A DNA stretch of 64,000 nt from a bacterium (GTDB taxonomy: Bacteria; DUMJ01), in contig JACIXS010000100.1 in NCBI GenBank assembly GCA_014360335.1, forward strand, positions 24,431 to 88,430, read 5' to 3'. A program made the translations under genes and the position numbers. Each line of letters opens with the position of its first letter. Positions within the stretch are counted from its first letter, which is position 1. This document shows, in pieces, positions 1 to 64,000 of this stretch. Under the pieces are notes generated by a model, which saw nothing but the letters and a program-made list of their open reading frames with translations, searched no databases and was not told the origin of the DNA.

Positions 1-926
<926 letters not shown>

Positions 927-948
927 AAAAGAACCTACAAGGATTAAT

Positions 949-29722: not shown

Positions 29723-29733
29723 GGGGCTATAGT

Positions 29734-31353: not shown

Positions 31354-31380
31354 GAATAAAGTTTTAGGAGGTGAAGTTTT

Positions 31381-32916: not shown

Positions 32917-32922
32917 AAGTTA

Positions 32923-32952
32923 GGGGCTCTAATAGAGCCCCTTTATTATTTT
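32923..32952. terminator. GGGGCTCT/AGAGCCCC hairpin followed by a T-run, between two convergent genes
   Basis: Seen directly in the sequence. Confidence 0.55.
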
Positions 32953-37242: not shown

Positions 37243-37250
37243 ATTTATAA

Positions 37251-37275
37251 AGGGGGAAGAAATTTCCTTCCCCCT
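37251..37275. terminator. AGGGGGAAG...CTTCCCCCT hairpin between convergent genes
   Basis: Seen directly in the sequence. Confidence 0.5.
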
Positions 37276-37278
37276 AAT

Positions 37279-38292
37279 TTATCTAAAATTCTTTCCTGTA
37301 TTTATAAACGCTTCTATATTTTCTAGAGGGGTGTCTTTTGGCAAATCACAGCCTGAACTCAGTATAAAATTTTTAATTCCTTTCATCTTTTTTAATAGAT
37401 CTTTGGTAGCATTAACTACCTCTTGAGGTTTGGCTAAAAGGAATATTTTTACTGGATCGAGATTTCCTACAAGGTATATATCATTCGGTATAATATCTGA
37501 AGCTTCTTTTAGGTCTACTGGACTATCTAAGCTTAGTCCTATCGCTTTAGTTTTAGCCATTTCCTCTAAAAGATGCTTAGTGTTACCGCATATATGTAAT
37601 ATCAAAGGAGCTTTTAATTCTTCTGCAAGTATAGAAAAATATCCTCCTGAAAATTCTCTAAACTGAGAGGGGGAGAGCATTACTGAGGTTGGTTCTAATA
37701 CAGCTACTACATCTGCTCCTGCATTTAGTAATGCATTTGCATAGTCTTTTATTACTATAGTAGTAAATTCTAGAAACTTATGTACCAAGTCAGGATTTAA
37801 TATGAGATTCATCATCAAATCCTCTACCCCTATTAATTCTCCTGCTAAGGTAAATGGACCTATAGTGTAGGCACCCTTTAATAGAGAGTAGTTTTTAGCC
37901 AAATCTTCTACTACCTTTATAAATACAGGCATCCGTCCGGAAATCCCTTTGTAAAGTGTTCTAATTTTTTCTAACTCATCTAGTGTTTTTATATTATGCC
38001 TTCTTACAGAAGGATTATCATTTTCAGGAAAATCTATCTTTAGACCCAAAGCCTCTGCTTCTACAGTAAGATCCATAAATACAAATATACCATCAGGCTG
38101 AAACTTCTCTATGAGGAGTTTTAAACTTTTTATCTGGGTAGAAGCATCTGTTAGATTAGCTCTTAACGTAGTATTAGAAAGCTGTACTCCTGGTGCCCCT
38201 AGAAGAGGGATTACAGGGACTCTATCTTTCGGCAGATTAATACTCACTCTATCACTCCCTCTCGATTCGTAATTTACTAGATATCCTATCAA
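37279..38292 (-). CDS. Uroporphyrinogen decarboxylase (URO-D) family protein, MtaA/CmuA-like corrinoid methyltransferase type
   Basis: 337-aa TIM-barrel of the URO-D superfamily, called by overall pattern. Confidence 0.65.
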   Translation of the reverse strand: MIGYLVNYESRGSDRVSINLPKDRVPVIPLLGAPGVQLSNTTLRANLTDASTQIKSLKLLIEKFQPDGIFVFMDLTVEAEALGLKIDFPENDNPSVRRHNIKTLDELEKIRTLYKGISGRMPVFIKVVEDLAKNYSLLKGAYTIGPFTLAGELIGVEDLMMNLILNPDLVHKFLEFTTIVIKDYANALLNAGADVVAVLEPTSVMLSPSQFREFSGGYFSILAEELKAPLILHICGNTKHLLEEMAKTKAIGLSLDSPVDLKEASDIIPNDIYLVGNLDPVKIFLLAKPQEVVNATKDLLKKMKGIKNFILSSGCDLPKDTPLENIEAFINTGKNFR

Positions 38293-38595: not shown

Positions 38596-40260
38596 ATGCG
38601 TAGTGATGAAGTTAAAAAAGGAATTGAGAGGGCTCCACATAGGTCACTTTTAAAGGCATTGGGTATAGACGATGAGGAACTAGATAAACCTTTTATAGGG
38701 GTAATAAATAGCTATTCGGAGATAATTCCTGGCCATATACATTTGGCAAAGATAGCAGAGGGGGTAAAGGCTGGCATAAGAGAAGCAGGTGGAATTCCGT
38801 TTGAGTGTGAAACGATAGGTATATGCGATGGAATAGCTATGAATCACAGTGGAATGTGTTTTTCTCTTCCGTCTAGGGAACTTATTGCAGATAGTGTTGA
38901 ATCACTTGCCGAGGCATATAAATTTGATGGCATTGTAGTCATTCCTAACTGTGACAAGATTGTCCCTGGTATGATTATGGGATTGGCAAGGGTAAATATC
39001 CCTTCTATACTTGTCAGTGGTGGACCTATGTTGCCTGGAGAATATAACGGAAAAAGGATAGACCTTTCTACTATATTCGAAGCGGTTGGAGCTGTTGCTA
39101 GTGGTAAGAAAGATATGGAATATTTAAGAGAGCTGGAATACTCTGCCTGTCCTGGGTGTGGATCTTGCGCTGGAATGTTTACAGCAAATTCTATGAATTG
39201 TCTATCTGAGGCTATTGGAATAGCCCTTCCTGGAAATGGTACTATACCTGCAGTTGAAGCGGGAAGAATAAGATTAGCCAAAGCTACAGGAAGAGCAATA
39301 GTAAGACTAGTTAAGGAGAACATTATACCTAGTATGATTCTTACCAAGTCAGCGTTCTTGAATGGAATAGCCTTAGATATGGCTTTGGGTTGTTCCACTA
39401 ATACGATCTTGCATCTTACTGCTATAGCTAACGAGCTAGGTATCGGATTAGATTTTGACGAGATAAATAGTATAGCTGATAAGACTCCTTATCTTTGCTA
39501 CTTGAGTCCTGTAGGTCCATACTATGTAATAGACCTTTATAGGGCTGGTGGAGTTATGGCTGTTTTAAAAGAGCTTAACAAGAAAGAGCTTGTAGATAGG
39601 AATACACTTACGGTTAGCGGAAAGAAGCTAGGAGAGTTGATAGATAGTGCTGAGGTAAAAGATTATAATGTGATAAGGCCCATAGATAATCCTATAAGAG
39701 AAACGGGTGGATTATCTATACTTAGGGGAACTTTAGCTCCAGATGGGGCGGTAGTTAAGAGATCAGGAGTAGCAGAGTCTCTTTATAGATTTATTGGAAA
39801 GGCTAAGGTTTTTGATGGTGAAGACGAGGCCACAAAAGCCATATTTGGTAATAAGATAGAAAAGGGTGATGTAGTTATAATTAGATACGAGGGACCTAAG
39901 GGTGGTCCTGGAATGAGAGAGATGCTTACTCCTACATCTGCTCTTGTTGGTATGGGATTAGATTTAGATGTTGCTCTTATTACTGACGGTAGATTCTCTG
40001 GTGCTACTAGAGGATTAGCTATAGGCCATGTATCTCCAGAGGCTTGGGAAGGTGGACCTATAGCTTATGTACGAGATGGAGACCTTATAGAGATAGACTT
40101 GAATAAGAGAGAAGTGAATCTTCTAGTTGATAAGGAAGAGATTGCTAGAAGAACCTATAAGGTTCCAGAGAGTCATAAGCGTAAAGGATATCTTGGTAGA
40201 TATCAGAAATTAGTATCCTCTGCTTCATTTGGAGCAGTTATGGAGGTAAATAGAAGATGA
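38596..40260 (+). CDS. ilvD: Dihydroxy-acid dehydratase
   Basis: ILVD_EDD family with Fe-S cysteine motifs (CDKIVPG, CPGCGSC). Confidence 0.95.
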
Positions 40261-41924
40261 GATTAACCGGGGCACAGATAGTTATTGAAGCATTGAAACA
40301 TGAAGGGGTAGATGTTATCTTTGGAATCCCAGGAGGAGCAATCATTGATGTCTATGATGCCTTATATGATTCAGGTATAAGACATATCCTTGCCCATCAT
40401 GAGCAGGGTGCAGCCCATATGGCTGATGGTTATGCTAGAGCTACTGGAAGAGTAGGAGTATGTTTTGCTACCTCAGGCCCTGGAGCAACTAATCTTACTA
40501 CAGGAATAGCTAATGCTTATATGGATTCTATCCCTATAGTAGCGATTACAGGACAGGTAGCTACTCATTTGATAGGGAAAGATGCATTTCAGGAGGCAGA
40601 TACAACTGGTATTACTTCACCAATAACAAAGCACAATTATCTTGTAAAAGACGTTAATGAATTAGCCAGAATTATAAAGGAAGCATTCTATATAGCAAGA
40701 ACTGGACGACCTGGGCCTGTCCTTATAGACATACCTAAAAATATACAAACTGCTACTGCTGATTTTGATTACTCTTCTATAGAGATTGATATAAGGGGTT
40801 ACAAGCCTTCAATAACCGGACATATAAGACAGATAAAGGAAGCGGCTAGGCTTATAAATGATGCTAAGAAGCCTTGTATATTAGCTGGAGGCGGAGTTAT
40901 AACTGCAGGTGCAAGTGAGGAGCTCTTTAAATTAGCCACGAAAGCTAATATACCTGTGGCAACAACCTTTATGGGTATAGGAAGCTTCCCTCAAGACCAC
41001 CCATTATCCTTAAAATCCGCTGGTATGCATGGTAATTATGCTGCGAACTATGCCCTTATGGAGTGTGACCTACTCATAGCTATAGGATGTAGATTTAGTG
41101 ATAGGACTACTGGTAAGGTTTCTAGTTTTGCTTCTAAGGCTAAAAAGATTCATATAGATATAGACCCTGCCGAGATAAATAAGAACGTAATAGTAGATGT
41201 CCCTATAGTTGGAGATGCTAAGATTATCTTGAAAGCACTTATAGAATACGTTCAAGAGAAGAGGGAAGAGGAATGGCTAAGTTATATTATGGAACTCAAA
41301 GCTACTCATCCCCTTACATATGCAGATGGACCTACAATTAAGCCTCAATTTGTTATAGAGAAGCTCTGTGAGATAGTCCCAGATAATACAATTATAGTAA
41401 CAGAGGTAGGACAGAATCAGATGTGGTCCGCTCTATTTTTCACCCATAAAAAGCCTAGACACTTTATATCTTCTGGTGGTTTAGGAACTATGGGTTTTGG
41501 TTTTCCTGCTTCTATTGGAGCTAAGGTTGGTAGACCTGACGCGCTTGTAATCGATATAGCAGGGGATGGAAGTTTTCTAATGAACATTCAAGAACTTGCC
41601 ACTGCAGTAGAGAATAACATACCTATTAAAGTAGTTGTAATAAATAACAGGGCTCTTGGAATGGTTAGACAGTGGCAAGAGTTGTTCTATAAAAGGAGAT
41701 ATTCTGCTACTATCTTGAAAGAGGTTAATTTTGCTGAGATAGCAAAGGCTTTTGGAGCTAAGGGGATAAGGGTGACTGAGAAGGAAGGACTAGTTCCTGC
41801 TCTATACAGCGCTTTTGAATATCCAGGACCTGCGGTGGTGGATGTAGTAGTAGAACAGGAAGAGAATGTGGTACCGATGGTTCCTCCGGGTGCTCCAATA
41901 GACCAAATTATTGGAGGTAAGTAG
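40257..41924 (+). CDS. ilvB: Acetolactate synthase, large subunit
   Basis: TPP enzyme with the [21 protein letters not shown]-binding motif. Confidence 0.93.
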
Positions 41925-41925
41925 G

Positions 41926-42414
41926 ATGAGACATACTATTGCAGTCTTAGTAGAAAATAAATCTGGAGTATTAGCAAGGATATCTAACCTCTTTAGAAGA
42001 AGGGGGTACAATATAGAGAGTATTACTGTTGGAAAGTCGGAGAGGGAGGGAATAGCTAGGATAACATTAGAAGTAGACGGAGATGAATTAGTTATAGAAC
42101 AAGTAACAAAACAGCTAAATAAGCTTATAGATGTGATAAAAGTGAGCGACATAACTCATGATGAGATGATAGAGAGAGAACTTATGCTTATAAAGGTTAG
42201 TGCTGATGCTTCTACTAGGTCTGAGATACTTCAGATTGTTGATATATTTCGTGCAAGCGTAGTTGATGTGAGCCCTAAGGCTTTGGTGATAGAGATTACT
42301 GGTGATAGAGATAAGCTAGAAGCTTTTGAGACATTACTTCGACCCTTTGGAATAAAGGAGATAGCTTGCACAGGTAAGGTTGCTATGGTTAGGCATCCTA
42401 AGGAAATTAAATAA
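41926..42414 (+). CDS. ilvN: Acetolactate synthase, small (regulatory ACT) subunit
   Basis: [26 protein letters not shown]-domain start. An ATG at 41926 with GGAGGT upstream is preferred over the upstream in-frame start at 41911. Confidence 0.88.
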
Positions 42415-42432
42415 AAAAGGAGGCGTTTACTT

Positions 42433-43431
42433 ATGGCAAAAATATACTATGAACAAGATGTAAAGTATGATGCGTTATCTGGAAAGACAGTTGCTGTTAT
42501 AGGTTATGGAAGTCAAGGAAGAGCACAATCGAGAAACTTAAAGGATAGTGGGGTAAAGGTTATTGTAGGACTAAGAAAAGGAGGAAGGTCTTGGGAATTA
42601 GCCAAGTCTGAAGGTATGGACGTTACGACAATAGAAGAGGCATCAGAAGTAGGAGATGTTATACAGATCCTTATCCCTGATCAGATGCAACAAGAAGTGT
42701 ATGAAACTTCTATTAAGAAGCATCTAAATGAGGGAAAAGCACTAGGTTTTTCCCATGGTTTTAACATACACTATCATCAGATTATCCCTCCTGAGGGAGT
42801 GGATGTTTTTATGGTAGCACCTAAAGGACCTGGACCATTAGTAAGAAGAATGTACGAAGAGGGTAAGGGTGTTCCTAGCCTAATAGCTGTTTATAAAGAC
42901 TATTCAGGTAAAGCTAAAGATATAGCCCTTTCTTATGCAAAGGCTATTGGTTCTTTAAGGGCTGGGGTCATAGAGACTACATTCAAAGAAGAGACTGAGA
43001 CAGACCTCTTTGGTGAACAGGCTGTTCTCTGCGGAGGAGTAAACGAACTTATCAAGTATGGTTTTGAGGTCTTAGTAGAAGCTGGCTATCAACCTGAGAT
43101 TGCATACTTTGAATGTCTTAACGAGCTAAAGTTAATAGTAGACCTGATCTACGAGGGTGGAATTATAAATATGTGGAAAGGTGTAAGTGACACTGCTAAA
43201 TATGGTGGTTTGACGGTAGGACCTAAAATTATAACTAAGGAAGTAAAAGAACTTATGAGGAAAGCTTTGGAAAGGATACAGAATGGCGAATTTGCTAGAG
43301 AATGGGTGTTGGAGAATAAATCAGGTCAGGTAGTTCTTAAGGCTAGTATCGAATCCGCAGAGAATCATCCTATAGAAAAGGTTGGAAAGACTTTAAGGGA
43401 TATGATGCCATGGATAAAGAGGGGAGAGTAA
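42433..43431 (+). CDS. ilvC: Ketol-acid reductoisomerase
   Basis: [17 protein letters not shown] Rossmann motif; 332 aa. Confidence 0.95.
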
Positions 43432-43432
43432 A

Positions 43433-44923
43433 ATGAGAAAGGTCTTTATATTTGATACTACTCTTAGGGATGGCGAGCAAACCCCTAGAGTTACACTTGA
43501 ACCTCAAGAGAAACTTAGGATAGCTAAACAGCTTGAGGAAATGGGGGTAGATGTTATAGAGGCCGGTTTTCCCATTGCGTCTCCAGGTGATGTAGAAGCG
43601 GTTACTATAATCTCTAAAGAGATAAAGAATAGTATAGTATGTGGGTTGGCTAGGTCTATTAGGAAGGATATAGATACAGCGTGGTCTGCCCTTCAGTATG
43701 CAAAAAGACCTAGGATACACGTGTTTATAGCAACTAGCGATATACATATGAAGTATAAGCTGAGAAAGACTAAGGAGGAAGTATTAGAACAAGCTGTGGA
43801 GGCGGTAAGATATGCCAAATCTCTCTGTGAGGATGTGGAATTCTCCGCTGAAGATGCCACTAGGTCAGACCCAGAATTCTTAAGAGAGATTTTCTTACGA
43901 GTTATAGAGGCAGGAGCTACAGTTATAAATGTTCCTGATACTGTCGGTTACTGTGTGCCAAGTGAGTTCGGAAATCTTATAGCTCAGGTAAGAAGTTATA
44001 TCCCAGAAGATATCATTTTAAGTGTCCACTGCCATAATGACTTAGGTCTAGCTACTGCTAATTCCTTAGTTGGTGTACTTAATGGAGCTAATCAGGTAGA
44101 GGTAGCTATGAATGGATTGGGAGAAAGGGCAGGGAATGCTGCCTTTGAAGAAGTGGTAATGGCTATAAAAACAAGAAAAGACATATTTAACGCATATACA
44201 GATATAAAGACAGAGTATATTATGAGTCTAAGTAGGCTTGTAAGTGGGCTTACCGGCATACCAGTTCAGCCAAACAAAGCTATTGTTGGCATTAATGCCT
44301 TTGCTCATGAAGCGGGAATTCACCAGGATGGTATTCTTAAGGAGAGAAGCACTTACGAGATAATGAATCCTAAAGATATAGGTCTAGATTCCTCCGAGAT
44401 AGTGCTAGGTAAACATTCTGGTAGACATGCCCTTAATGAAAGGCTTAAACAGTTAGGTTACGTTCTCTCGGAAGAAGAACTGACTAGGGTTTTTGAAAGG
44501 TTTAAGGTGCTTGCTGATAAAAAGAGAGAGATCCTAGATAGAGACCTTATAGCCCTTTTAGAGGAAAAGCCTGTAGAATTACCTGTGTATAGACTCGTTA
44601 ATATGGAGGTAACAACAAAGATAAATAATAGCTCATATGCAAAGGTAGACCTTGAAAAAGCCGAAGAGAGATTCCATGGAGAATCAGAAGGAGATGGACC
44701 TATTGAGGCGCTTTTTAATGCTATAGAAAACGCTATTAATATGCACTTTGACCTTATAGACTTTTCTCTAAAGTCTGTTACTATGGGTAAAGATGCTTTG
44801 GGAGAAGCCTTAGTTAAGCTGAAAAAGGATGGAGAGGTTCATTCTGGTAGAGGCACTAGCAAGAACATTCTTGAGGCTAGTGTTATAGCATATATAAACG
44901 CTATAAATAGGGCTCTTGCTTAA
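43433..44923 (+). CDS. leuA: 2-isopropylmalate synthase / (R)-citramalate synthase family (short LeuA/CimA form)
   Basis: FDTTLRDGEQ N-terminal motif, HxH (HCHNDLGLA), and a C-terminal regulatory domain; 496 aa. Confidence 0.85.
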   Translation: MRKVFIFDTTLRDGEQTPRVTLEPQEKLRIAKQLEEMGVDVIEAGFPIASPGDVEAVTIISKEIKNSIVCGLARSIRKDIDTAWSALQYAKRPRIHVFIATSDIHMKYKLRKTKEEVLEQAVEAVRYAKSLCEDVEFSAEDATRSDPEFLREIFLRVIEAGATVINVPDTVGYCVPSEFGNLIAQVRSYIPEDIILSVHCHNDLGLATANSLVGVLNGANQVEVAMNGLGERAGNAAFEEVVMAIKTRKDIFNAYTDIKTEYIMSLSRLVSGLTGIPVQPNKAIVGINAFAHEAGIHQDGILKERSTYEIMNPKDIGLDSSEIVLGKHSGRHALNERLKQLGYVLSEEELTRVFERFKVLADKKREILDRDLIALLEEKPVELPVYRLVNMEVTTKINNSSYAKVDLEKAEERFHGESEGDGPIEALFNAIENAINMHFDLIDFSLKSVTMGKDALGEALVKLKKDGEVHSGRGTSKNILEASVIAYINAINRALA

Positions 44924-44962
44924 TCCCTACTAGGTTGATATAATCTAATATAGGTAAGAAAG

Positions 44963-46219
44963 ATGGGAATGACACTTACAGAAAAGATTATTTCTGCGCA
45001 TACAAATAAGGATGAGGTTCATAGCGGGGAATTTGTAATAGCTAAAGTCGATTTTTCTCTTGCCAATGATATAACTGGTCCTTTAGCTATTAAAGAGTTT
45101 GAGAAGATAGGGGTAGATAGGGTTTTCGATAAAGAGAGAATTGCACTTATCCCCGACCATTTTACCCCTAATAAGGATATCCCTAGTGCCGAGCAGTGTA
45201 AAGTCTTGAGAGAATTTGCCCGTAGGATGGACCTTAAATATTACTATGAAGTAGGACGGGTAGGTATCGAACATGCCCTTCTACCTGAAGAAGGCTTAGT
45301 TGTCCCCGGTGATGTAGTTATAGGTGCAGATTCGCATACATGTACCTATGGAGCTTTAGGGGCTTTCTCAACAGGTGTAGGAAGTACAGATTTGGCTAAT
45401 GTCTGGGCTACAGGTGATATATGGCTTAGAGTCCCTGAGAGTATAAAGTTTATACTATATGGTAAGCCTCAAAAGTGGGTCACTGGTAAAGATATTATCC
45501 TGAACATTATAGGACGTATAGGGGTAGAAGGGGCAAATTATATGGCGATGGAATTTTCAGGCGAAGCTCTAAAGTATATTTCTATGGACTCAAGATTTAC
45601 TATATGTAATATGGCTATCGAAGCTGGTGCAAAAAATGGTATTATCCCTTTTGATGATATTACAGCTAACTATATGAAGGGTAGAAACAAGAGACCTTAT
45701 AAGATATATCTTCCAGATGAGTCTGCAGATTATAAAGAGATAATAGAGATAGATGTCTCTAGCATCCCACTAGAAGTGGCTCTCCCTCATTTACCTTCTA
45801 ATGTAAAGTCTGTAGAGGACATTGGAGAGATATATATAGACCAAGTAGTCATAGGTTCTTGCACAAACGGAAGAATGGAAGACTTAAGGATAGCTGCTCA
45901 GATTTTAAAGGGCAAAAAGGTCCATCCATACGTTAGATTAATAGTCATTCCTGCCACCCAAGAGATATATCTACAGGCTTTAAAGGAGGGACTTATAGAG
46001 ATATTTATCTCTGCCGGTGCTAGTGTTTCTACACCTACCTGTGGTCCATGCTTAGGTGGACATATGGGTATCTTGGCTAAGGGGGAAAAAGCATTAGCAA
46101 CTACTAATAGGAATTTTATAGGCAGAATGGGTCATCCAGAAAGTGAAGTCTATCTCTGTGGACCAGCTGTAGCAGCTGCCTCTAGCATAGAAGGAAAGAT
46201 AACTGCTCCATATGATTAG
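44963..46219 (+). CDS. leuC: 3-isopropylmalate dehydratase large subunit (archaeal-type, about 420 aa, aconitase family)
   Basis: Aconitase-family cysteine triad region (GSCTNGR...CGPCLG). Confidence 0.85.
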
Positions 46220-56021: not shown

Positions 56022-56597
56022 TTACAGAACCCCTTTGGTTGAGAGGATATCATCTATTTTTCTTGTAGCTTCTTTTAGAGATATTCCTAATGATTTTATA
56101 AGACACTCTGCTATATGGTGAGAATTATTCCCTCTAAGTTTTAAGATGTGAAGAGTCATCCTACTATTCATAGCGAAAGCTCTCAAGAACTCTGTAAGCC
56201 ATTCGGTTTGAAAGGTTCCTATAAAGCTATCAGTAAATAGATCGTTAGTTTCAAAATAAGGTCTCCCACTGATATCTATACTTGAGATTATTAGTGCATC
56301 ATCCATAGGAATTATCGAATAACCAAATCGTGCTATTTTAAAGTCTCCTAATGCCTTGTTGAGTGCAGAACCTAGGACTATCCCGACATCCTCACATAGA
56401 TGATGCCCATCTACTTCTAGGTCCCCTTTGGCAGAGATATCTATATCAAAACCACTATAAAGGGCAAATGAGGTTAAAAGATGATTAAAGAAGCCAATAC
56501 CCGTATCAATATTACCTCTTCCAGTTCCATCTATATTTAAACTTATCTTTATATCTGTCTCTTTAGTTGTTCTAGCTATAGAAATCTCTCTAGCCAC
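56022..56597 (-). CDS. hisB: Imidazoleglycerol-phosphate dehydratase
   Basis: IGPD family (TKETDIKISLNIDG; D/H-rich metal motifs). Confidence 0.92.
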   Translation of the reverse strand: MAREISIARTTKETDIKISLNIDGTGRGNIDTGIGFFNHLLTSFALYSGFDIDISAKGDLEVDGHHLCEDVGIVLGSALNKALGDFKIARFGYSIIPMDDALIISSIDISGRPYFETNDLFTDSFIGTFQTEWLTEFLRAFAMNSRMTLHILKLRGNNSHHIAECLIKSLGISLKEATRKIDDILSTKGVL

Positions 56598-56672: not shown

Positions 56673-57815
56673 TTAGCAAGATTTAAGTGCCTTTATTAAG
56701 CTACCAATCTGATAAGAAATCCATTCCAACTGTTCTTTAGTGCGCCTTATTGATTCTTCTAAGGTTATAGGGCCTCTAGTAACTGAGAATAGGGCGTCTG
56801 CCAATCCCTCCTCTATTAGAATTTCAGCATCTTCGTCTACAGCTCCACCTAATAGTATCACAGGTATAGCCTTCTCTTTAGCCTTTTTAGCTATTCCCGC
56901 TGGACCCTTCCCAAATATTGTTTGTCCATCTATCTTTCCTTCACCACTTATAACTATGTCTACTCCTTCTAATTTTCTCTCTATATCTAAAGTCTCTAAA
57001 ACAACTTCAATTCCAGGCTTTAGCTTGGCATTTAAAAAGGCAACTAGTCCTCCTCCTAATCCTCCAGCCGCTCCTGCTCCTGGAAGGTTCAATATATCCT
57101 TACCCAAGTCTCTTTTAACCACTTGAGCAAAATTAAATAATGCCCTATCTAATTCTTCTATTAACTCTTTGGTTCCACCCTTCTGTGGACCATAAACATA
57201 AGAAGCTCCTTCAGGTCCACATAGGGGATTTTTTACATCCGCCATTACTATAACTTCACACTCTTTTGCCAAAGGATGAAAATTACTCATATCAATAGTG
57301 TGAAGTTCTTTAAGTGCCAGTCCACCAAAGGGTAACTCTCTACCCTCTTTATCTAATAGCCTTGCTCCTAAAGCCTGTGACATTCCTGCACCGCCGTCAT
57401 TAGTAGCACTTCCACCTATTCCCACTAGTATTCTCTTTACTCCTCTATCTAATGCTTCCCTTATGAGTTCACCAACACCATAGGTAGTAGTAATAGCAGG
57501 GTTTCTTTTTTCTTTCGGAACTAAGGCTAAACCAGAAGCCCTTGCCATTTCTATAACAGCAGTCTTACCGTCACCTAGAATGCCAAACTTTGCTATTATT
57601 CTTTCTCCTAGAGGACCGGTTACCTCTTTTTCTATAAACTGTCCATTGGTAGCCTCTACTAAGACCTCAATTGTCCCATCCCCACCATCTGCTATTGGTA
57701 GAACGATAATATCACTATTAGGGAGGGCTTTTAAGAGCCCTCCCTTTATAGCCTCTCCAGCCTCTCTGGCGGAAAGAGCTTCCTTAAATGCGTTAGGAGC
57801 CACCAGTATCTTCAT
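56673..57815 (-). CDS. glxK: Glycerate kinase (GK-I / GlxK family)
   Basis: [12 protein letters not shown]...IADGGDGT N-terminus typical of the glycerate kinase family; 380 aa. Confidence 0.85.
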
Positions 57816-58795
57816 TTTTTCAACACTTCCGGATTTACCGGATTGGGTGGCATCTTTCCTGCTAATACCGCTAGGAGATTCTCTGCAGCCATCGTAGCCA
57901 TCTTGGTCCTTGTCTCTACACTTGCACTGGCTATATGAGGTAGTAGAACTGCATTCTCACATTCTGCTAATCCTGGGACAAGCTTAGGCTCAAACTCATA
58001 GACATCCAATCCTGCTCCTGCTATCCACCCTTCTTTTAGAGCCTTTACTAATGCATTTTCATCTACTACTGGTCCCCTTGAAGTGTTTATAAGATAAGCG
58101 GTCTTTTTCATCTTCTTTAGTCTCTCTTCATTTATCAGGTGATAAGTCTCAGGAGATAGATAGGTATGAAGTGAGACAAAATCGCTCTGCTCTAGAAGCT
58201 CATCTAAAGAGACAAATGTGGCATTTAATTCTTTTTCAAGTTCTTCAGGTATTCTCCTTATATCATTGTATAGGACCTTCATATTGAAACCTTTTGCTCT
58301 TCTTGCTACAGCCTGTCCAATCCTTCCCATGCCTATGATACCTAGTGTCTTTCCATAAACATCCTGCCCAAGAAAGAGCATAGGAGCCCAGCCTTCATAC
58401 TTTCCTGCTCTCGTAAACTTATCCGCTTCTACTACTCTTCTAGCGGTAGCTAAAATAAGAGCCCATGCCAAGTCTGCTGTAGTCTCAGTAAGAACCCCTG
58501 GGGTATTTGTTACTACTATACCTCTTTTAGTTGCCTCATTTACATCTATATTGTCATAACCTACCGCATAATTACTTACAACCTTTAACTGGGGCCCAGC
58601 AGCATCAAACACTTCCGCATCTATCTTATCTGTTAAGAGACAGAGTATGCCATCCTTGCCCTTTACTGCTTGAAGTAACTCCTCTCTTGTTAATACCCTA
58701 TCGTATGGATTTATCTCTACCTCATGCTCCTTTCTTATCATTTCTATTCCGGGCTCTGGAATACGCCTGGTTATATAAACCTTCAATGTATACAC
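57812..58795 (-). CDS. D-isomer-specific 2-hydroxyacid dehydrogenase (glyoxylate/hydroxypyruvate reductase type)
   Basis: NAD-binding GxGxxG ([12 protein letters not shown]) and the catalytic R/E/H arrangement; 327 aa. Confidence 0.85.
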
Positions 58796-58798
58796 CTC

Positions 58799-60145
58799 CT
58801 AGCTTAGTAAAAATCCTGATGATGATATTATATCACCTAAACCTACTGTAAGCTTTGGTGACTGAACTACCTTGGTAGGAACTATTACAAGGCTGAAATT
58901 GTCTATATTCTTAATACCTTCGTACCCAGTTAATGTTATAGTTGGAACTCCTAAGCCTTTCTCTAAGTCTTCTAATGTCTCGTATCTGCCAAGTAGAGAC
59001 CTTGTGGCAGCTAAGATAGCAGAGAATAGAAGAGCGGTTCTCTCATTTCGCTCATTCTTTTCCCTAGTAATAGATATATAATGCCCAAGAGTGTGAAGTT
59101 GAATCCTCTTAAGAGGAGTCCTTTCCATAATCTTTAGCAAACCATCCACCAATTTTACTATAGGGAATCTTGTGTCTTTAAGTTCTTTTGCTAAATCTTG
59201 CTCTCCAAAATCACTAAGCAGTGTGGCAAATTCAATCTCGTTTAATCCGAGACTATCTATAACGGGGAATATATGCTTTACCACTAGACTTCTTATCAGA
59301 GAACTTCCGATAGAGGCAAATTCATAGTGGACCTTTAAACCTAATCTTTCTTTCATCTGGCTTACGAATTCGGCAACTGGAACTATAAAGTCTTCGCAGG
59401 TTTTACCCTCAGGATACCTTTCTAAAAGAATATGAAAGCCTGATACTAAGAAGTGTGTAAATTTATCTGGTATGAGGAATATATCTCTTTTAAACTCTTC
59501 ACTTACCCTTAATCTACAATTTACAGGATTCCAAGCTGCTATGAACCTATTGGCTCTTGGAGATTCATAGGTTGTTCCATCGAGCTCTATCTTTAATCCT
59601 TTATTGTATTCTAATATCCAGTGTATAGCAAATATCCCCTGGTCCTTCCATGCTTTTCTAGGAGAACGGAGTACTGGTTTATCATTCTCTCTAGTTAAAA
59701 CAAAGAGATTTTTTCTTTCAGGGAAGAGTTCAGCAAGTTCTTTGGTTAATGGATTTGCATATACTAGAATCTTTGAGAGTGGTAAAGGGGACAATAGACT
59801 AGCCATATTTGCCGAAGTTCCGCCAAGCCTCAATTGGTCATATCCAATGTTTTCTAAGGTCCATCTAAAGGTCTCTTCATTCTCTATCATCCTCTGATAG
59901 GCTAAACCTTCTCTTATGGAGATAAGGAGGTCAACAAGTAAGTCCTCTGGACTCCTTATAACCGATGTTGGTTCACTAGGAATACTTTTAATATGTGGAA
60001 ATTGCTCTAGAAGCCTCTTTAAGAGGTCTTCTTCTACTCTCTTTAATCCATCTATCGTTGAATGAAATCCAGTTATTACACCTGGAATCCTCTGTAGTTT
60101 TTTCCAGCCCTCCTCTAAAGCCTCTCTATACAGTTCTTCCCACAT
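58799..60145 (-). CDS. ADP-dependent sugar kinase family protein (archaeal ADP-glucokinase / ADP-phosphofructokinase family)
   Basis: Collinear blocks with Thermococcus/Pyrococcus ADP-GK/PFK as recalled: WEELY...GFHSTIDGL (archaeal WKRLY...AYNTNIDAI), LRLGGTSANMA, PRANRFIA, LGLNEIEFA, RIQLHTLGHY, ALLFSAILAA, and the C-terminal IVPTKVVQSPKLTVGLGDIISSSGF (archaeal [25 protein letters not shown]). Confidence 0.8.
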   Translation of the reverse strand: MWEELYREALEEGWKKLQRIPGVITGFHSTIDGLKRVEEDLLKRLLEQFPHIKSIPSEPTSVIRSPEDLLVDLLISIREGLAYQRMIENEETFRWTLENIGYDQLRLGGTSANMASLLSPLPLSKILVYANPLTKELAELFPERKNLFVLTRENDKPVLRSPRKAWKDQGIFAIHWILEYNKGLKIELDGTTYESPRANRFIAAWNPVNCRLRVSEEFKRDIFLIPDKFTHFLVSGFHILLERYPEGKTCEDFIVPVAEFVSQMKERLGLKVHYEFASIGSSLIRSLVVKHIFPVIDSLGLNEIEFATLLSDFGEQDLAKELKDTRFPIVKLVDGLLKIMERTPLKRIQLHTLGHYISITREKNERNERTALLFSAILAATRSLLGRYETLEDLEKGLGVPTITLTGYEGIKNIDNFSLVIVPTKVVQSPKLTVGLGDIISSSGFLLS

Positions 60146-60995
60146 TGTCTAAAGCCTCCTTGTACGCCTCTTCGGAAGAATAGTTCTTGTGTAGTATAAG
60201 TTTCATAGCTAAAGCCATAACCTCAGGTTTATCACTTAGGAATACATTTCTACCAACCACGAAACCACTAGCTCCAGCCTTTACGCCATCTTCGAAGTCT
60301 CTAAGGACATCTAAAGGATTTTCTCTCTTTGGACCTCCTAAAAGTAGTACCTTAGCATTTACACTATCTATTATCCTCTTAAATAGTTCTATACCCTCTT
60401 CCCTGGAGTTACTCTTTACATAGGGGATTTTAAGTATCGGCACCCTAAAGTCGTTAGTTATTATAGAGACCCACTTTATAGCCTCATAAGACCTATCCAT
60501 AACCAACTTTCCATCCTCTAGATTCATATAGAGGGGTTCTACCATAAGAGGCATAGACCATTTCTCGCACTCTTCTACCACATTAGCTAGAAGTGTTAAC
60601 TGCTCATTAGTAAACTGATTATTCTTATTGAACTTTATTAGAAGTTTTACTCCATCTAGTCCCCATCTAAGAGCGGTTTCTACCGTACAAACACATCTAT
60701 CATCCATCTCAAAAGTTGTTCCAGCTAGCCCAGTTCTATTAAGGCTTAATACTAATCCTTTATCTCTTAGGTTACCATTGACTATAAGTTGAGCTAAAGG
60801 CTCTTTTGTGGTCATTATAGCATCCAGATAGGGGGCTAATCTTTCTATGAGAGAAACCAAATTAGCAAAGTTATCTATCCCTTCTTGAATGCCTCGCTGT
60901 CTATGGTCTATAGCTAGAACCATGGACTTTCCATCTTTTGCAAAGATCCGAGACATCCTATTGGTTATTCCTACATCATAAAAAAGTGACTCCAT
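60126..60995 (-). CDS. Archaeal-type class I fructose-bisphosphate aldolase family (DeoC/FbaB-like) aldolase
   Basis: RIFAKDGKSMVLAIDH (Schiff-base aldolase N-terminal block) and C-terminal GASGFVVGRNVF, as in class IA FBA and ADH synthase. Confidence 0.78.
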   Translation of the reverse strand: MESLFYDVGITNRMSRIFAKDGKSMVLAIDHRQRGIQEGIDNFANLVSLIERLAPYLDAIMTTKEPLAQLIVNGNLRDKGLVLSLNRTGLAGTTFEMDDRCVCTVETALRWGLDGVKLLIKFNKNNQFTNEQLTLLANVVEECEKWSMPLMVEPLYMNLEDGKLVMDRSYEAIKWVSIITNDFRVPILKIPYVKSNSREEGIELFKRIIDSVNAKVLLLGGPKRENPLDVLRDFEDGVKAGASGFVVGRNVFLSDKPEVMALAMKLILHKNYSSEEAYKEALDNVGRTV

Positions 60996-61006
60996 CGAAT
61001 TCCTCC

Positions 61007-62029
61007 TTAGTCGTTTATTACTACAGCCTTTCCAGTCTTACTAGATTCATAGACCGCAAGTATAAATTGTATAGCTCTTCTACCATCCTCTCCAGTTATA
61101 CTAGGGGTCCTATTGTATAATACTGCTTCTGCCATATCTCTTATCTGTGCTATATGCCCTTTTATAAAGAGAGCTCTAGGGTCACTTGATGCTGATTCTC
61201 CTTGAGTAGATAAGCCTTTTCTCTCTTCTCCCTTTATAAACCAGTCTCTTACGAAAGGACCTTCTACCACTACACTACCATTTGTCCCATGAACCTCTAT
61301 CCTCTCTTTGAAGCCGGGATAACAGGCAGTTGAACCCTGTATTACACCTAAGGCTCCATTTTTGTACTTTATAATGGCTATAGCCACATCCTCCACCTCT
61401 ATATTGTGTGCTAGAGTCCCACAGTATGCAGTTATCTCTTTGACAGGTCCTGCAAGATAGAGAAGTTGATCCACAAAATGTACGGATTGATTCATTAGTG
61501 CTCCTCCACCATCTAGAGCCCAAGTTCCACGCCAATCTGCACTATCATAATATTCCTGTGTTCTCCACCACTTTACATAGGCATCAGCCATAACAATCTT
61601 ACCAAGTTTTCCTGAATCTATGGCAGATTTTAGTTCTTGAATTCCAGGGTCAAATCTATGCTGTGATATAACACTAAGTTTAACTCCTGCTTTTTGACAG
61701 GCCTCTATAAGGGCATCAGCCTTTTCTAATGTAATATCTATTGGTTTTTCCACCAAAACGTGCTTTCCTTTTTTCGCAGCCTTTATACCCAAATCTGCAT
61801 GTAATCCACTAGGGACACAGATATTTATTACATCTATGTCATTTCTAGCTAACATCTCATCGTAATCAGCATACCAGTCCACGCCGTACTTTTCTCCTAA
61901 AGCCTTGGCTCTTTCCGGTATAATATCACATACAGCCTTTAACTCTGCTATCTCTATATTCTTTATAGCTTCCGCATGTGTTGGACCTATAACGCCACAT
62001 CCAACTATACCAAATCTTACTTTATTCAT
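61007..62029 (-). CDS. Gfo/Idh/MocA-family NAD(P)-dependent oxidoreductase (inositol 2-dehydrogenase-like)
   Basis: RFGIVGCGVIG Rossmann N-terminus and a C-terminal Gfo/Idh/MocA domain; 340 aa. Confidence 0.85.
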   Translation of the reverse strand: MNKVRFGIVGCGVIGPTHAEAIKNIEIAELKAVCDIIPERAKALGEKYGVDWYADYDEMLARNDIDVINICVPSGLHADLGIKAAKKGKHVLVEKPIDITLEKADALIEACQKAGVKLSVISQHRFDPGIQELKSAIDSGKLGKIVMADAYVKWWRTQEYYDSADWRGTWALDGGGALMNQSVHFVDQLLYLAGPVKEITAYCGTLAHNIEVEDVAIAIIKYKNGALGVIQGSTACYPGFKERIEVHGTNGSVVVEGPFVRDWFIKGEERKGLSTQGESASSDPRALFIKGHIAQIRDMAEAVLYNRTPSITGEDGRRAIQFILAVYESSKTGKAVVIND

Positions 62030-62033
62030 ATTA

Positions 62034-62855
62034 TCACCTCTCTATCTCAGACAATATTTTCTTTAATGCTTGAGAAGCTTTTTTAAAGAGCTCAGGACCA
62101 GAAAATCCTTGAAATTGCCCACTATGAGCAAGGTGTGGTTCAAGGCTCAAGAAATATTCTCTGCTTTTTTTCTTCAGAGACATCAAAAGTTCCTTTATTT
62201 CTCCATCTCCTTCTCCAGCAGGAACTTCAACTCCATCTGAGAAGTGCGCATCTTTTATATGAACATACTCTATATAATCTTCTAAAAGTGGATAAGCCTC
62301 TCTAAAGGGCTTAACATTGCACTGTATAAAGTTTGAAGGGTCAAATACCGCTTTTAGATTTGGAGAGTTTATACTCTTTAGTATATCGAGACACCTTTCA
62401 GGTGTATCTCCATATATCTTCTTTTCGTTTTCATGTAATAGTATAACTCCTTCTTTCTCTGCTATCTTTACAAGTTCTCCTAACCTTTCTAAGGATATCT
62501 TTCTAAGCTCATCTATGCTCATACCTTCTTCTGGATAGAATGAGAATATCCTGATATATGAGGTACCGAAGAAATGTGCTAGTCTTATGGCATTCTGTAG
62601 CTTCTCCTTTTGTCCTTCTATATCTTCCTTCGCTCTAACCTTTCCGATTGGAGATGCTATAGCAGATACCTTTATTCCATAATTATCTAACATCTCCTTT
62701 ATCTTCTTGCTATCTTCTTCGGTCAGAGTTACAACATTCTTACCAAAGGCGCTTCTTAACTCCAGGTAACCTATCTCCTCCTCTTTTAGTATTTTTAGCT
62801 GTTTCTCAAAGTCAGGTGATATTTCATCACCAAAACCAGAGAGTTTATACCACAT
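62034..62855 (-). CDS. Sugar phosphate isomerase/epimerase (xylose isomerase-like TIM barrel; IolE/IolI-like)
   Basis: AP_endonuc_2-type TIM barrel pattern (HENE..., metal ligands spaced as in inosose dehydratase/isomerase). Confidence 0.75.
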   Translation of the reverse strand: MWYKLSGFGDEISPDFEKQLKILKEEEIGYLELRSAFGKNVVTLTEEDSKKIKEMLDNYGIKVSAIASPIGKVRAKEDIEGQKEKLQNAIRLAHFFGTSYIRIFSFYPEEGMSIDELRKISLERLGELVKIAEKEGVILLHENEKKIYGDTPERCLDILKSINSPNLKAVFDPSNFIQCNVKPFREAYPLLEDYIEYVHIKDAHFSDGVEVPAGEGDGEIKELLMSLKKKSREYFLSLEPHLAHSGQFQGFSGPELFKKASQALKKILSEIER

Positions 62856-62868
62856 CTTTTTTCCCTCC

Positions 62869-63666
62869 TTATAACTCTTTAACTATCTGTTCTGCCCATT
62901 TTATCCAGGCGTGCTTTACATCATCTCTAGGAATATTTACAGGGTCCTCTCCTGCTAATACCCATAAATAGTATAACGAATATCCTGGTGCAGCTACTAC
63001 AGGATGATATCCTCTGGTGATGGGAAGGGCTGTATAATCCGTTACTGTATAGACCTCATCCATATCTCCCTCTTCTGTATATATCCTCTGAAAGCCAAAC
63101 CCACTAGGTGGATTTAGCCTATATAGGTAAACCTCCTCCATCTTCCACTCATAGGGAGGATTATGTTTATCATGCTTGTGTGGAGGATAGCTAGACCAGT
63201 TTCCTGGAGGATTGACAGTTTCTCCCATTATTATATGTTTTGCTCCAATCCTTTTATCTATAACCTGGGTTACATATCTCTTCCAGTTATGTGTACCAAC
63301 AACTCTTCTTTCTACTTCATTCGGATTTATTACTGTTACGTCTACATTATTTGGTTCTGACTTTACAGTTGCAAAGACTAATTCACTATTATCCAAAGCC
63401 TTGATATCTACTTTTTTCCCTGGAGGAATATATAATCCCCAAGGTTTACTGTTGAATATCTCACTCCTAGGTCCTAGTATATATCTACTATCGACCTCTA
63501 CCCTTCCAGTGCATAGAAGACATCCGATTTCCCTTTCTTTCTCTCCTAAAGATACAACTTCACTAGATTTCAATCTAAGGACAAATAACCTTGTCCATTC
63601 AAGACCCTGTACAGGAACTTCTAATATCCCTGTACCTTCTGGGACTTTAGCTAGTTTAGAACTCAT
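62869..63666 (-). CDS. iolB: 5-deoxy-glucuronate isomerase-like cupin (IolB/KduI family)
   Basis: PGNWSSYPPHKHD and EEVYLYR...GFGFQRIY blocks recalled as IolB hallmarks; 265 aa. Confidence 0.72.
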   Translation of the reverse strand: MSSKLAKVPEGTGILEVPVQGLEWTRLFVLRLKSSEVVSLGEKEREIGCLLCTGRVEVDSRYILGPRSEIFNSKPWGLYIPPGKKVDIKALDNSELVFATVKSEPNNVDVTVINPNEVERRVVGTHNWKRYVTQVIDKRIGAKHIIMGETVNPPGNWSSYPPHKHDKHNPPYEWKMEEVYLYRLNPPSGFGFQRIYTEEGDMDEVYTVTDYTALPITRGYHPVVAAPGYSLYYLWVLAGEDPVNIPRDDVKHAWIKWAEQIVKEL

Positions 63667-64000
63667 CTATTCCCACTCCTTTCTTAAGTATTCAAGACTT
63701 TTAGGTAATTCGTTCTTCTTATCCTCCCATCTGCACTCTATAGATATAGCCCCTTTATAGTTTGCCTCTTTAAGGGCATTAAATAGGGCTTTGAAATTAT
63801 AGTTGTTTTTCCCTGGTGCAACTCTTCCTCTATCGGATACGTGTACATGATAAAGTTTTTCTTTTATTTTATAGATATTAGATAATGGTTCATCCTCCAA
63901 ATCTGCATGATAATTGTCTATCAGTACCCCTATATTTGGGCTATTGACCCTCTCTGCAAACTCTAACCCTTCTAATGTGGTATTTATAATATTACTCTCC
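63667..64000 (-). CDS. Second xylose isomerase-like TIM-barrel protein, C-terminal part (5' end lies beyond the window)
   Basis: The frame is open to the window edge (…LEGLEFAERVNSPNIGVLIDNYHADMEDEPL…HVHVSD…). Confidence 0.7.
   Translation of the reverse strand, partial: ESNIINTTLEGLEFAERVNSPNIGVLIDNYHADLEDEPLSNIYKIKEKLYHVHVSDRGRVAPGKNNYNFKALFNALKEANYKGAISIECRWEDKKNELPKSLEYLRKEWE

Follow-up and report, generated by a model that had tools for sequence, protein, structure and literature searches.

The 64,000-nucleotide stretch of bacterial DNA considered here (GTDB lineage Bacteria; DUMJ01; NCBI GenBank assembly GCA_014360335.1, contig JACIXS010000100.1, positions 24,431 to 88,430), referred to as a whole as the window, carries at one end the operon that is the subject of this study. 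As determined from an open reading frame (ORF) list and from Pfam and NCBIfam scans, the operon comprises seven complete genes and one partial gene, arranged head to tail on the minus strand at positions 56673-64000. Read in the direction of transcription, it begins with a triosephosphate isomerase (TIM) barrel protein, here TIM barrel 1, of which the 3′ part lies in the window (63667-64000, with the C-terminal 110 codons at 63667-63999; 87% identical to a 250-aa protein encoded in the related contig L001, at L001:1253-2005). There follow an IolB-like KduI/IolB cupin isomerase (62869-63666; PF04962, 239 bits), a second TIM barrel protein of 273 aa, here TIM barrel 2 (62034-62855; PF01261, 96.6 bits), a Gfo/Idh/MocA NAD(P) oxidoreductase (61007-62029; PF01408, PF02894 and PF22725), a Cgl0159-type class I (Schiff-base) aldolase (60126-60995), an ADP_PFK_GK-family kinase (58799-60145), a D-isomer 2-hydroxyacid dehydrogenase of the glyoxylate/hydroxypyruvate reductase type (57812-58795; PF02826 and PF00389) and, as the last gene, a class I glycerate kinase of the GlxK/GarK type (56673-57815; PF02595, 488 bits).

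An earlier account of this DNA, made from the letters and their translations and referred to here as the sequence-only reading, had described eight co-directional, tightly packed minus-strand genes. The ORF data agree: the aldolase and kinase genes overlap by 20 nt, the reductase and glycerate kinase genes overlap by 4 nt, and the remaining intergenic gaps are 0-13 nt, a packing that, judged from this layout, is suited to co-translation. The fold families named in that account were likewise recovered by profile searches (PF04962, PF01261, PF01408, PF04587 and PF01791). A promoter/terminator scan, in which site counts were near the shuffle expectation, gave no terminator-like sites on the coding strand between the operon genes, and the sole minus-strand terminator-like match falls inside the reductase gene. 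Downstream of the operon, a gap of 75 nt separates the glycerate kinase gene from hisB (56022-56597), the first of a hisB-H-A-F-IE series that is followed by an H+-pyrophosphatase gene. None of 10 other window genes scanned was a uronate, inositol, phosphofructokinase (PFK) or fructose-bisphosphate aldolase (FBA) gene.

The boundaries beyond position 64000 were read from relatives whose kinases are 71-91% identical to that of the window. Here and below, loci numbered with an L are related contigs from genome and metagenome scans, with flanks covered up to 10 kb. The full unit in these relatives consists of a LacI-family regulator, TIM barrel 1 (250 aa), the IolB-like protein, TIM barrel 2, the Gfo protein, the aldolase, the kinase, the reductase and the glycerate kinase. 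The regulator gene lies directly upstream of TIM barrel 1 in L001-L004, in a position that falls outside the window, and LacI is present together with the eight enzyme genes in L001-L005, L010-L014 and L021-L028. This gene order is repeated, at 67-100% identity, in over 20 independent contigs, so the arrangement is not due to chance; a genome-contig scan with the IolB-like protein gave only five close relatives. The DNA around the unit differs from one relative to another. Upstream of LacI there are Cas genes in L011, L022 and L024, a divergent pair of SBP_bac_5 and URO-D genes in L003 (1470-4498), L025 and L027, and genes for Gfo, Amidohydro_2 and PD40-repeat proteins in L013 and L026; the downstream flank likewise varies in L003. 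As differing flanks surround the same nine genes, the operon is self-contained: it travels as one block, with a regulator of its own. Its gene content, boundaries, conservation and family assignments are seen directly, as are the intact catalytic residues and the departure of the kinase pocket from those of PFK and glucokinase described below. Neither IolD, IolE, IolA nor a transporter is encoded in the window region or in the more than 20 operon loci with their flanks. The sequence-only reading had proposed that iolD, a transporter and a regulator be sought past position 64000; as judged from the relatives, that DNA holds the rest of TIM barrel 1 and the LacI gene, followed by unrelated variable sequence, so the regulator was found there and the other two were not. 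The Cas genes form a CRISPR-Cas set (Cas1, Cas3, Csa2/DevR-like and Cas6) that abuts the LacI end of the operon (L011:292-8066, L022, L024). An orphan SBP_bac_5 solute-binding gene with a URO-D-family gene also occurs in the window itself, at 35275-38292, about 26 kb from the operon.

The kinase clearly belongs to PF04587 (261 bits against a gathering cut-off of 27), and its scores against the functional models of that family fall below their cut-offs (ADP-PFK TIGR02045, 279.7 bits against 408; ADP-glucokinase NF010641, 238.6 bits against 554). Among proteins of known structure, its best relative is an ancestral ADP-PFK (6c8z, 1e-74). The study of that structure identified the residues that contact the sugar (PMC7948494), among them K179 and R212, by which a PFK holds the phosphate of fructose-6-phosphate, and all the contact positions were transferred to the window kinase through an alignment with 6c8z. 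The correspondence is N32 to H28, N34 to T30, D36 to D32, E90 to Q84, Q116 to T110, K179 to A173, N181 to H175, R206 to R200, R212 to N206, Q244 to H238 and D471 to D438. In the same order, the reference patterns are N/N/D/E/Q/K/N/R/R/Q/D for ADP-PFK and N/N/D/E/N/L/H/R/D/H/D for ADP-glucokinase, and archaeal-type sequences that entered through the metagenome scan, used as a control in one alignment with the bacterial kinases, gave the expected N-N-D-E/A-G-G-Q-K-N-R-R-Q-D for PFK and bifunctional enzymes and N-N-D-E-G-G-N/Q-L/F-H-R-D-H-D for glucokinases. The window kinase thus lacks both of the residues that hold the fructose-6-phosphate phosphate, with Ala in place of K179 and Asn in place of R212. 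Set against the glucokinase pattern, E90 is changed to Gln and D212 to Asn, which neutralises both acids of the pocket, N32 is changed to His and position 116 is Thr, with the glucokinase-type His residues at 181 and 244 retained. The catalytic GXGD motif is intact (G435-L-G-D438), and R206 (R200 in the window kinase) and D36 are retained.

This pocket signature holds in all but two of 120 homologs listed, down to 36% identity, and, few exceptions apart, it is shared by about 160 bacterial homologs overall, including metagenome loci, across bacterial phyla; position N34 is Thr or Val in the bacterial family. The main exception is a subgroup in which E90 is replaced by Arg and position 244 is Gln (L044, L046, L047, L054, L068 and protein P0102). 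By the residues of its pocket, the kinase is not a phosphofructokinase, nor is it a glucokinase, and the conservation of the signature indicates a distinct bacterial subfamily with a conserved substrate of its own. We infer that the loss of negative charge and the gain of His or Arg fit an anionic sugar. ADP is presumably the phosphate donor, as family membership would suggest, and the predicted reaction is ADP-dependent phosphorylation of a keto sugar acid at the primary hydroxyl beside its keto group. In L046, a locus of the exceptional subgroup, the kinase gene is back to back with genes for an Ldh_2-family dehydrogenase (Pfam) and a hydroxypyruvate reductase homolog. A back-to-back arrangement of this kind, with a truncated kinase and a putative Ldh_2-family dehydrogenase, also occurs in L071.

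The aldolase gene that overlaps the kinase gene encodes a member of PF22649, the Cgl0159-like family (103.5 bits against a gathering cut-off of 27; PF01791, 75 bits). The best solved relative is Cgl0159 itself (3fok, 3.6e-24), followed by MJ0400 and the Thermoproteus fructose 1,6-bisphosphate (FBP) aldolase. Scores against the archaeal FBA model NF040816 (92 bits, cut-off 430) and the ADH synthase model (124 bits, cut-off 299.45) are low, and the Pfam scan gave no match to DUF2090 (PF09863) at E<0.01. Residues D30, H31, E153, K189, G220-G221 and G248-R249-N250 are common to the operon aldolase, Cgl0159, MJ0400 and T. tenax FBA. Among these are the Lys of the Schiff base (K189) and two motifs for the phosphate of dihydroxyacetone phosphate (DHAP), GG and GRN; all are intact. 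Intact catalytic residues and phosphate motifs together indicate that the protein is very probably an active, DHAP-forming aldolase, and its predicted reaction is cleavage of a phosphorylated keto acid to DHAP and a three-carbon aldehyde-acid. We found no experimental characterisation of any PF22649 protein. Cgl0159 is, as we assume, encoded beside iolC in the iol cluster of Corynebacterium glutamicum. The family is rare in the database searched (46 matches), and the next relatives, at 42-47% identity, are archaeal. The closest non-bacterial relatives (43-44% identity) lie at L017:8363-10840 and L019:1-2044, on contigs that carry PCNA, GINS and eIF2-alpha genes. The archaeal aldolase gene follows that of an FGGY-family kinase in L017 and L018, the longer contigs, on which two more genes of the DeoC family and one for an aldehyde:ferredoxin oxidoreductase are also present; by gene content, this neighbourhood again looks like an arrangement of kinase, aldolase and aldehyde-oxidising enzyme. 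The gene upstream of the aldolase in L019 and L020 encodes a 385-aa protein with no family match on record.

Taken as a whole, the front end of the operon is, by its profile scores, only a weak match to iol genes. For TIM barrel 1, the best solved relative is TM0416/IolO (2zvr, 1.8e-26), and a full-length relative of it finds its best match in the IolO model NF041099 (120.7 bits, below the cut-off of 300), with weaker matches to psicose 3-epimerase (92 bits) and hydroxypyruvate isomerase (TIGR03234, 68 bits). There is also weaker similarity to 2-oxo-tetronate isomerase, and against the IolE model TIGR04379 the same relative scores 21.5 bits (cut-off 290). TIM barrel 1 is thus probably an IolO-like enzyme of the ketose or keto-uronate 3-epimerase type; enzymes about 35% identical to IolO act on keto-uronates (PMC12632266). 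The IolB-like protein scores 196.4 bits against the IolB model TIGR04378, just short of its cut-off of 205, and 17.7 bits against the KduI equivalog; the solved relative is the IolB-like 2qjv (4.5e-28). A homolog in L050, 44% identical, exceeds the IolB cut-off (223 bits). The nearest relatives of the IolB-like protein outside the lineage (44-50% identity) are found beside a KDPG-type aldolase (KDPG, 2-keto-3-deoxy-6-phosphogluconate) in L015, from Dictyoglomus, and beside transporters of the tripartite ATP-independent periplasmic (TRAP) type in L016 and L050, and none of them lies in an iol operon. The proposed role of the isomerase is conversion of an aldo-uronate to a 5-keto-hexonate, that is, a keto-uronate.

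TIM barrel 2 has no close characterised relative. Its NCBIfam matches are weak, the best being L-ribulose-5-phosphate 3-epimerase (36 bits), and its best solved relative is MJ1311 (2e-7). The sequence-only reading had called it IolE/IolI-like, and no signal for IolE (TIGR04379, cut-off 290) or IolI was found at E<0.01; it may epimerise or isomerise an intermediate of the pathway or the three-carbon product. The Gfo protein, which had been called IolG-like, does find its best NCBIfam match in the IolG model TIGR04380, at 185.5 bits against a cut-off of 355. Its best solved relative is the UDP-N-acetylglucosaminuronic acid (UDP-GlcNAcA) 3-dehydrogenase WlbA (3q2i, 3.1e-64), with TM0414 (3ezy, 3e-36), a glucuronide 3-dehydrogenase (8tdi, 3e-32) and then inositol dehydrogenases ranked lower. 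By these comparisons the protein is not an IolG ortholog, and it could act as a secondary-alcohol dehydrogenase on a sugar or sugar acid that feeds the pathway. The proposal that the first four genes form the front end of the Bacillus-type myo-inositol pathway is therefore contradicted by the assignments of the Gfo protein and of both TIM barrels; for the partial first gene, the TIM barrel fold stands and the closest characterised type is IolO. The further proposal, that the positions of the IolB, IolC and IolJ steps are taken by an IolB-like isomerase, a kinase other than PfkB and a class I aldolase, is supported by our data.

The strongest clue to mechanism is found in the tail of the operon. 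The reductase scores 450 bits against the archaeal glyoxylate reductase model PRK13243 (cut-off 455) and 290 bits against GhrB, and its gene product is named D-glycerate dehydrogenase by NCBI (MBC7319805.1); homologs at 63-67% identity occur near distant kinases in L037 and L045. The glycerate kinase scores 490 bits against TIGR00045 (cut-off 168), with both the 2-phosphate and the 3-phosphate equivalogs below their own cut-offs. The predicted reactions are reduction of hydroxypyruvate to D-glycerate and phosphorylation of D-glycerate to 2- or 3-phosphoglycerate. Translational coupling of a GRHPR-type reductase to a glycerate kinase points to an intermediate that is either hydroxypyruvate or tartronate semialdehyde. 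When 2-deoxy-5-keto-gluconate-6-phosphate (DKGP) undergoes IolJ-type cleavage, malonate semialdehyde is formed, which neither a 2-hydroxyacid dehydrogenase nor a glycerate kinase can use; from the 2-hydroxy analogue, cleavage of this type gives tartronate semialdehyde. To our knowledge, tartronate semialdehyde/hydroxypyruvate is the only simple three-carbon product that would be consumed by a hydroxypyruvate reductase and a glycerate kinase. The tail thus favours the exit through glycerate, in place of malonate semialdehyde and IolA, that the sequence-only reading had suggested.

Neighbouring genes were then tallied around kinases 36-43% identical to that of the window, using a metagenome contig scan with the kinase alignment. 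Cgl0159-type aldolase genes stand beside these distant kinases in L037, L049, L050-52, L059, L063 and L072. The distant aldolases are usually fused to an N-terminal PF01261 TIM barrel, giving proteins of 683-722 aa in which the aldolase part scores 227-251 bits against PF22649; such fusions lie next to or near the kinase at L050:1263-3401, L059:4446-6590, L049:3391-5559 and L037:16624-18675. The fused TIM domain of the L050-type proteins shows no significant similarity to either TIM barrel of the operon. IolB genes accompany the kinase in L050-52, with an interrupted copy in L063, and Gfo genes in L052, L059, L060 and L070; in the last three, a Gfo homolog of 43-48% identity is encoded immediately after the kinase. 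TRAP DctPQM transporters are found near the kinases of L050-53, L059, L063 and L070, and hydroxypyruvate reductase homologs near those of L037, L045, L046 and L071. Neither IolD, IolE nor IolA was seen in the related clusters of L049, L050 and L059. Counting the window's own, at least six separate lineages link the kinase to the Cgl0159-type aldolase family, which we take to exclude both chance juxtaposition and a merely glycolytic role. TRAP systems typically import carboxylates, so these neighbours agree with the anionic sugar suggested by the kinase pocket.

Transketolase-like thiamine pyrophosphate (TPP) proteins of 720-775 aa also occur near the distant kinases (L049, L059, L065-67 and L070), scoring 123 bits against a transketolase cut-off of 682. 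Hydroxypyruvate is a classic transketolase donor, and, speculatively, these proteins might consume hydroxypyruvate, a role compatible with the scheme set out below. Their genes lie directly downstream of the kinase, or of the kinase and Gfo genes, at L059:12369-14639, L049:6845-9127, L070:4338-6590 and in L065-L067, and a split transketolase subunit is encoded just upstream of the kinase in L039 and L040. Two other proteins turn up repeatedly in the clusters with TRAP, IolB and kinase genes, one with a PCC domain (PF03479, about 152 aa) and one of M24/creatinase-like type with 366 aa (L050:3382-4937, L059:6587-7054, L069:2-322 and L016:8729-9811).

From these data we propose, tentatively and with somewhat less than even confidence, that the operon encodes the LacI-controlled catabolism of a six-carbon sugar acid, not of inositol. 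A uronate or hexonate would be converted to a 5-keto-hexonate and then to its 6-phosphate, which would be cleaved to DHAP and tartronate semialdehyde/hydroxypyruvate, with the latter leaving as glycerate and phosphoglycerate. Every substrate in this scheme, and the order of its early steps, is what we infer from the enzymes. In the first step, a hexuronate would be isomerised by the IolB-like enzyme and/or a hexonate oxidised by the Gfo protein, to give a ketose with a carboxylate such as fructuronate, tagaturonate or 5-keto-gluconate, and the two TIM barrel epimerases/isomerases may adjust its stereochemistry. The ADP-dependent kinase would then phosphorylate the primary hydroxyl beside the keto group, in an IolC-like step, and the Schiff-base aldolase would release DHAP and tartronate semialdehyde in an IolJ-like step on a non-deoxy substrate. 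Tartronate semialdehyde could pass to hydroxypyruvate through a Hyi-like TIM barrel or spontaneously, after which the 2-hydroxyacid dehydrogenase would form D-glycerate and the glycerate kinase phosphoglycerate. A non-deoxy 5-keto-hexonate substrate would explain the absence of the dehydratase IolE and of the ring-opening IolD. We also count in favour of a sugar acid that TIM barrel 1 is kin to an enzyme acting on 5-keto-L-gluconate/tagaturonate (PMC12632266), and that the closest IolB-like relatives neighbour a KDPG-type aldolase or a TRAP system. The sequence-only reading had offered a keto-sugar acid or a uronate as a fallback to a cyclitol, and it is this fallback that best fits the evidence.

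Several observations weigh against this proposal. No close characterised homolog fixes any of its substrates, the operon has no transporter, and the scheme gives no defined part to the Gfo protein or to TIM barrel 2. Hydroxypyruvate reductases normally do not accept tartronate semialdehyde, so an isomerase step must be assumed. In the literature searched, a kinase/aldolase route for fructuronate or 5-keto-gluconate is not described. Some distant kinases are found in neutral-sugar settings, beside an AglA alpha-glucosidase equivalog in L066, GH4 and ATP-binding cassette (ABC) sugar transporter genes in L069 and GH130 in L049, and many stand alone, as would suit a common sugar. Other substrates for the kinase and aldolase were considered and rejected. 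For DKII, the 3-deoxy-D-glycero-2,5-hexodiulosonate that derives from unsaturated uronates, C3 is deoxy, so DHAP-type cleavage is impossible; a five-carbon keto acid giving glyoxylate would leave the glycerate kinase without a substrate unless a carboligase were present.

An alternative that we consider improbable is that the operon represents the back half of a myo-inositol pathway, with IolG-like oxidation, IolB, an ADP-dependent 2-deoxy-5-keto-gluconate kinase and a class I DKGP aldolase, with IolE and IolD encoded elsewhere in the genome and the tail genes serving another purpose. The near-cut-off IolB score (196 against 205), the passing homolog in L050 (223 bits), the IolG model as the best NCBIfam match of the Gfo protein and an inositol-monophosphatase-family gene that adjoins L050-type clusters all speak for it. 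So does the placing of the aldolase in the family of Cgl0159, with its assumed position beside iolC. The DUF2090 proteins, moreover, offer a precedent for a class I-type DKGP aldolase (PMC9007349). However, IolD, IolE and IolA are encoded in none of the more than 20 operon loci, nor in the L049, L050 and L059 clusters, and the operon carries its own regulator and moves as a unit. As the tail enzymes could not use malonate semialdehyde, the presence of two conserved and translationally coupled genes would have no explanation. The Gfo protein falls far under the IolG cut-off and is closer to WlbA, and the TRAP transporters of the related clusters are ill-suited to a neutral cyclitol.

A similarly low probability is given to a route for a neutral sugar or glycoside. 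The kinase would then phosphorylate glucose, fructose or the like as an ADP-dependent hexokinase or ketohexokinase, the Gfo protein and a TIM barrel would split or convert a glycoside through 3-keto oxidation and elimination, and the glycerate kinase would take a glycerate aglycone (from glucosylglycerate or mannosylglycerate, for example) or oxidised glyceraldehyde from cleavage of a ketose-1-phosphate. Retention of the glucokinase-type His at 181 and 244 would be expected here, as would the GH4 (AglA equivalog), GH130 and ABC sugar transporter genes that adjoin some distant kinases and the many solitary family members, which resemble housekeeping kinases in this respect. The Gfo protein also resembles glycoside, glucuronide and C-glycoside 3-dehydrogenases, enzymes that work with PF01261 TIM barrel partners. 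Yet the glucose contacts E90, N32 and Q/N116, conserved in the archaeal ADP-glucokinase types aligned, are all replaced in the bacterial family, and glucose-6-phosphate as a product would leave the coupled aldolase without a role. Glyceraldehyde would require an aldehyde dehydrogenase, which is absent from the operon, and neither the IolB-like isomerase nor the hydroxypyruvate reductase would be explained.

Very improbable is the absence of any dedicated pathway, with a glycolytic ADP-PFK and an archaeal-type FBP aldolase placed amid unrelated sugar and glycerate genes: the top NCBIfam and PDB names (ADP-PFK, TIGR02045 at 280 bits and 6c8z at 1e-74; class I FBA-like) and the ADP-PFK and FBA-like labels given to homologs by JGI and NCBI would suit it, but every score is under its equivalog cut-off, K179 and R212 are missing, the aldolase is placed in PF22649 and reaches 92 bits where the FBA model demands 430, and kinase, aldolase, IolB and Gfo are repeatedly associated, in at least six distant lineages. 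The residual probability is assigned to readings not yet imagined.

The proposed sugar acid route may extend beyond this operon, a generalisation that we regard as possible but unlikely on balance. The widespread bacterial ADP-dependent kinase branch and the Cgl0159-type aldolases would then define an unrecognised phosphorylative cleavage of keto-uronates, by which hexuronates and hexonates yield DHAP and tartronate semialdehyde/hydroxypyruvate. The three-carbon acid would leave as glycerate in the operon described here, and perhaps by way of the 750-aa transketolase-like enzyme in other phyla, where the aldolase is TIM-fused. If true, this would provide the first function for a large clade of bacterial ADP-dependent kinases now labelled ADP-dependent glucokinase/phosphofructokinase or hypothetical, and would assign a function to the Cgl0159 aldolase family. 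The route would be an alternative to the Ashwell (isomerase) and oxidative hexuronate routes, yielding DHAP and glycerate instead of pyruvate and glyceraldehyde 3-phosphate, and genome-scale models of uncultured, probably thermophilic, lineages would be wrong wherever they take these genes for a glycolytic ADP-PFK and FBA. The operon offers a defined and testable set of eight enzymes and a regulator.

Elsewhere in the window, the regions 28703-33952 and 38596-46219 encode a GalT-like transferase, a GH57 protein, a 5′-nucleotidase and, on the minus strand, a GH130 protein, as well as IlvD/Edd-family dehydratase, HMGL-like (LeuA-type) and aconitase-family (LeuC-like) proteins. The gene at 913-4434 is annotated by NCBI as RNA polymerase beta′, and at just 1173 aa the product is short for a bacterial beta′; it may reflect a split rpoC or a feature of the lineage.

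Among known systems, the proposed scheme is similar to the back half of the Bacillus subtilis iol pathway (IolB, IolC and IolJ), in which a KduI/IolB-family isomerase forms a 5-keto acid, a ribokinase-superfamily kinase phosphorylates the primary hydroxyl beside the keto group and an aldolase releases DHAP and a three-carbon aldehyde-acid. It differs in that the operon kinase is a PF04587 protein, presumably ADP-dependent, and not PfkB, that the aldolase is of class I Cgl0159 type and not class II, and that orthologs of IolG, IolE, IolD and IolA are missing from the operon. The operon tail, furthermore, implies tartronate semialdehyde/hydroxypyruvate and a non-deoxy substrate, not malonate semialdehyde. 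A class I-type DKGP aldolase that replaces IolJ has been proposed for the IolC-DUF2090 fusion (Price et al. 2022, PMC9007349), so this part of the displacement suggested in the sequence-only reading is not new in kind, although the aldolase family here is a different one. Like IolC-DUF2090 and Cgl0159 (3fok), the operon aldolase belongs to the LacD/DeoC clan and retains the Lys and EP-motif Glu of the catalytic Lys/Glu pair; unlike the fusion, it is a PF22649 protein without a PF09863 match, and its partner kinase is ADP_PFK_GK, not IolC.

With the archaeal ADP-dependent kinases (T. litoralis glucokinase, P. horikoshii PFK and AncMsPFK 6C8Z/6XIO), the operon kinase shares the PF04587 fold, the GXGD Asp, R206, D36 and the glucokinase-type H181 and H244. 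It differs from them in lacking K179 and R212, and in the changes of E90 to Gln (or Arg in the family), D212 to Asn, N32 to His, N34 to Thr or Val and Q116 to Thr. The Thermotoga maritima inositol route reportedly runs through IolG, IolM, IolN and IolO (work attributed to Rodionova and colleagues, 2013). This route and the L-glucose route of Luteolibacter (LguG; PMC12632266) are similar to the operon in clustering an IolO-like epimerase with a Gfo protein, and have 5-keto-hexonates and tagaturonate as intermediates. The operon has no equivalents of IolM or IolN, and whereas the Thermotoga and Luteolibacter routes proceed from altronate to 2-keto-3-deoxygluconate (KDG) and a KDPG aldolase, the proposed route would proceed by phosphorylation and DHAP-type cleavage. 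The GarL/GarR/GarK and Gcl/GlxR/GlxK routes share with the operon the exit of a three-carbon acid through D-glycerate and a PF02595 glycerate kinase. In contrast to these, the operon reductase is a GRHPR-type 2-hydroxyacid dehydrogenase and not a GarR/GlxR-type tartronate semialdehyde reductase, and the three-carbon unit would arise with DHAP, not with pyruvate or from glyoxylate. Compared to all of these systems, a PF04587 kinase in such a role, a PF22649 partner aldolase, the lack of ring-opening steps and the glycerate exit appear to be undescribed in the literature searched.

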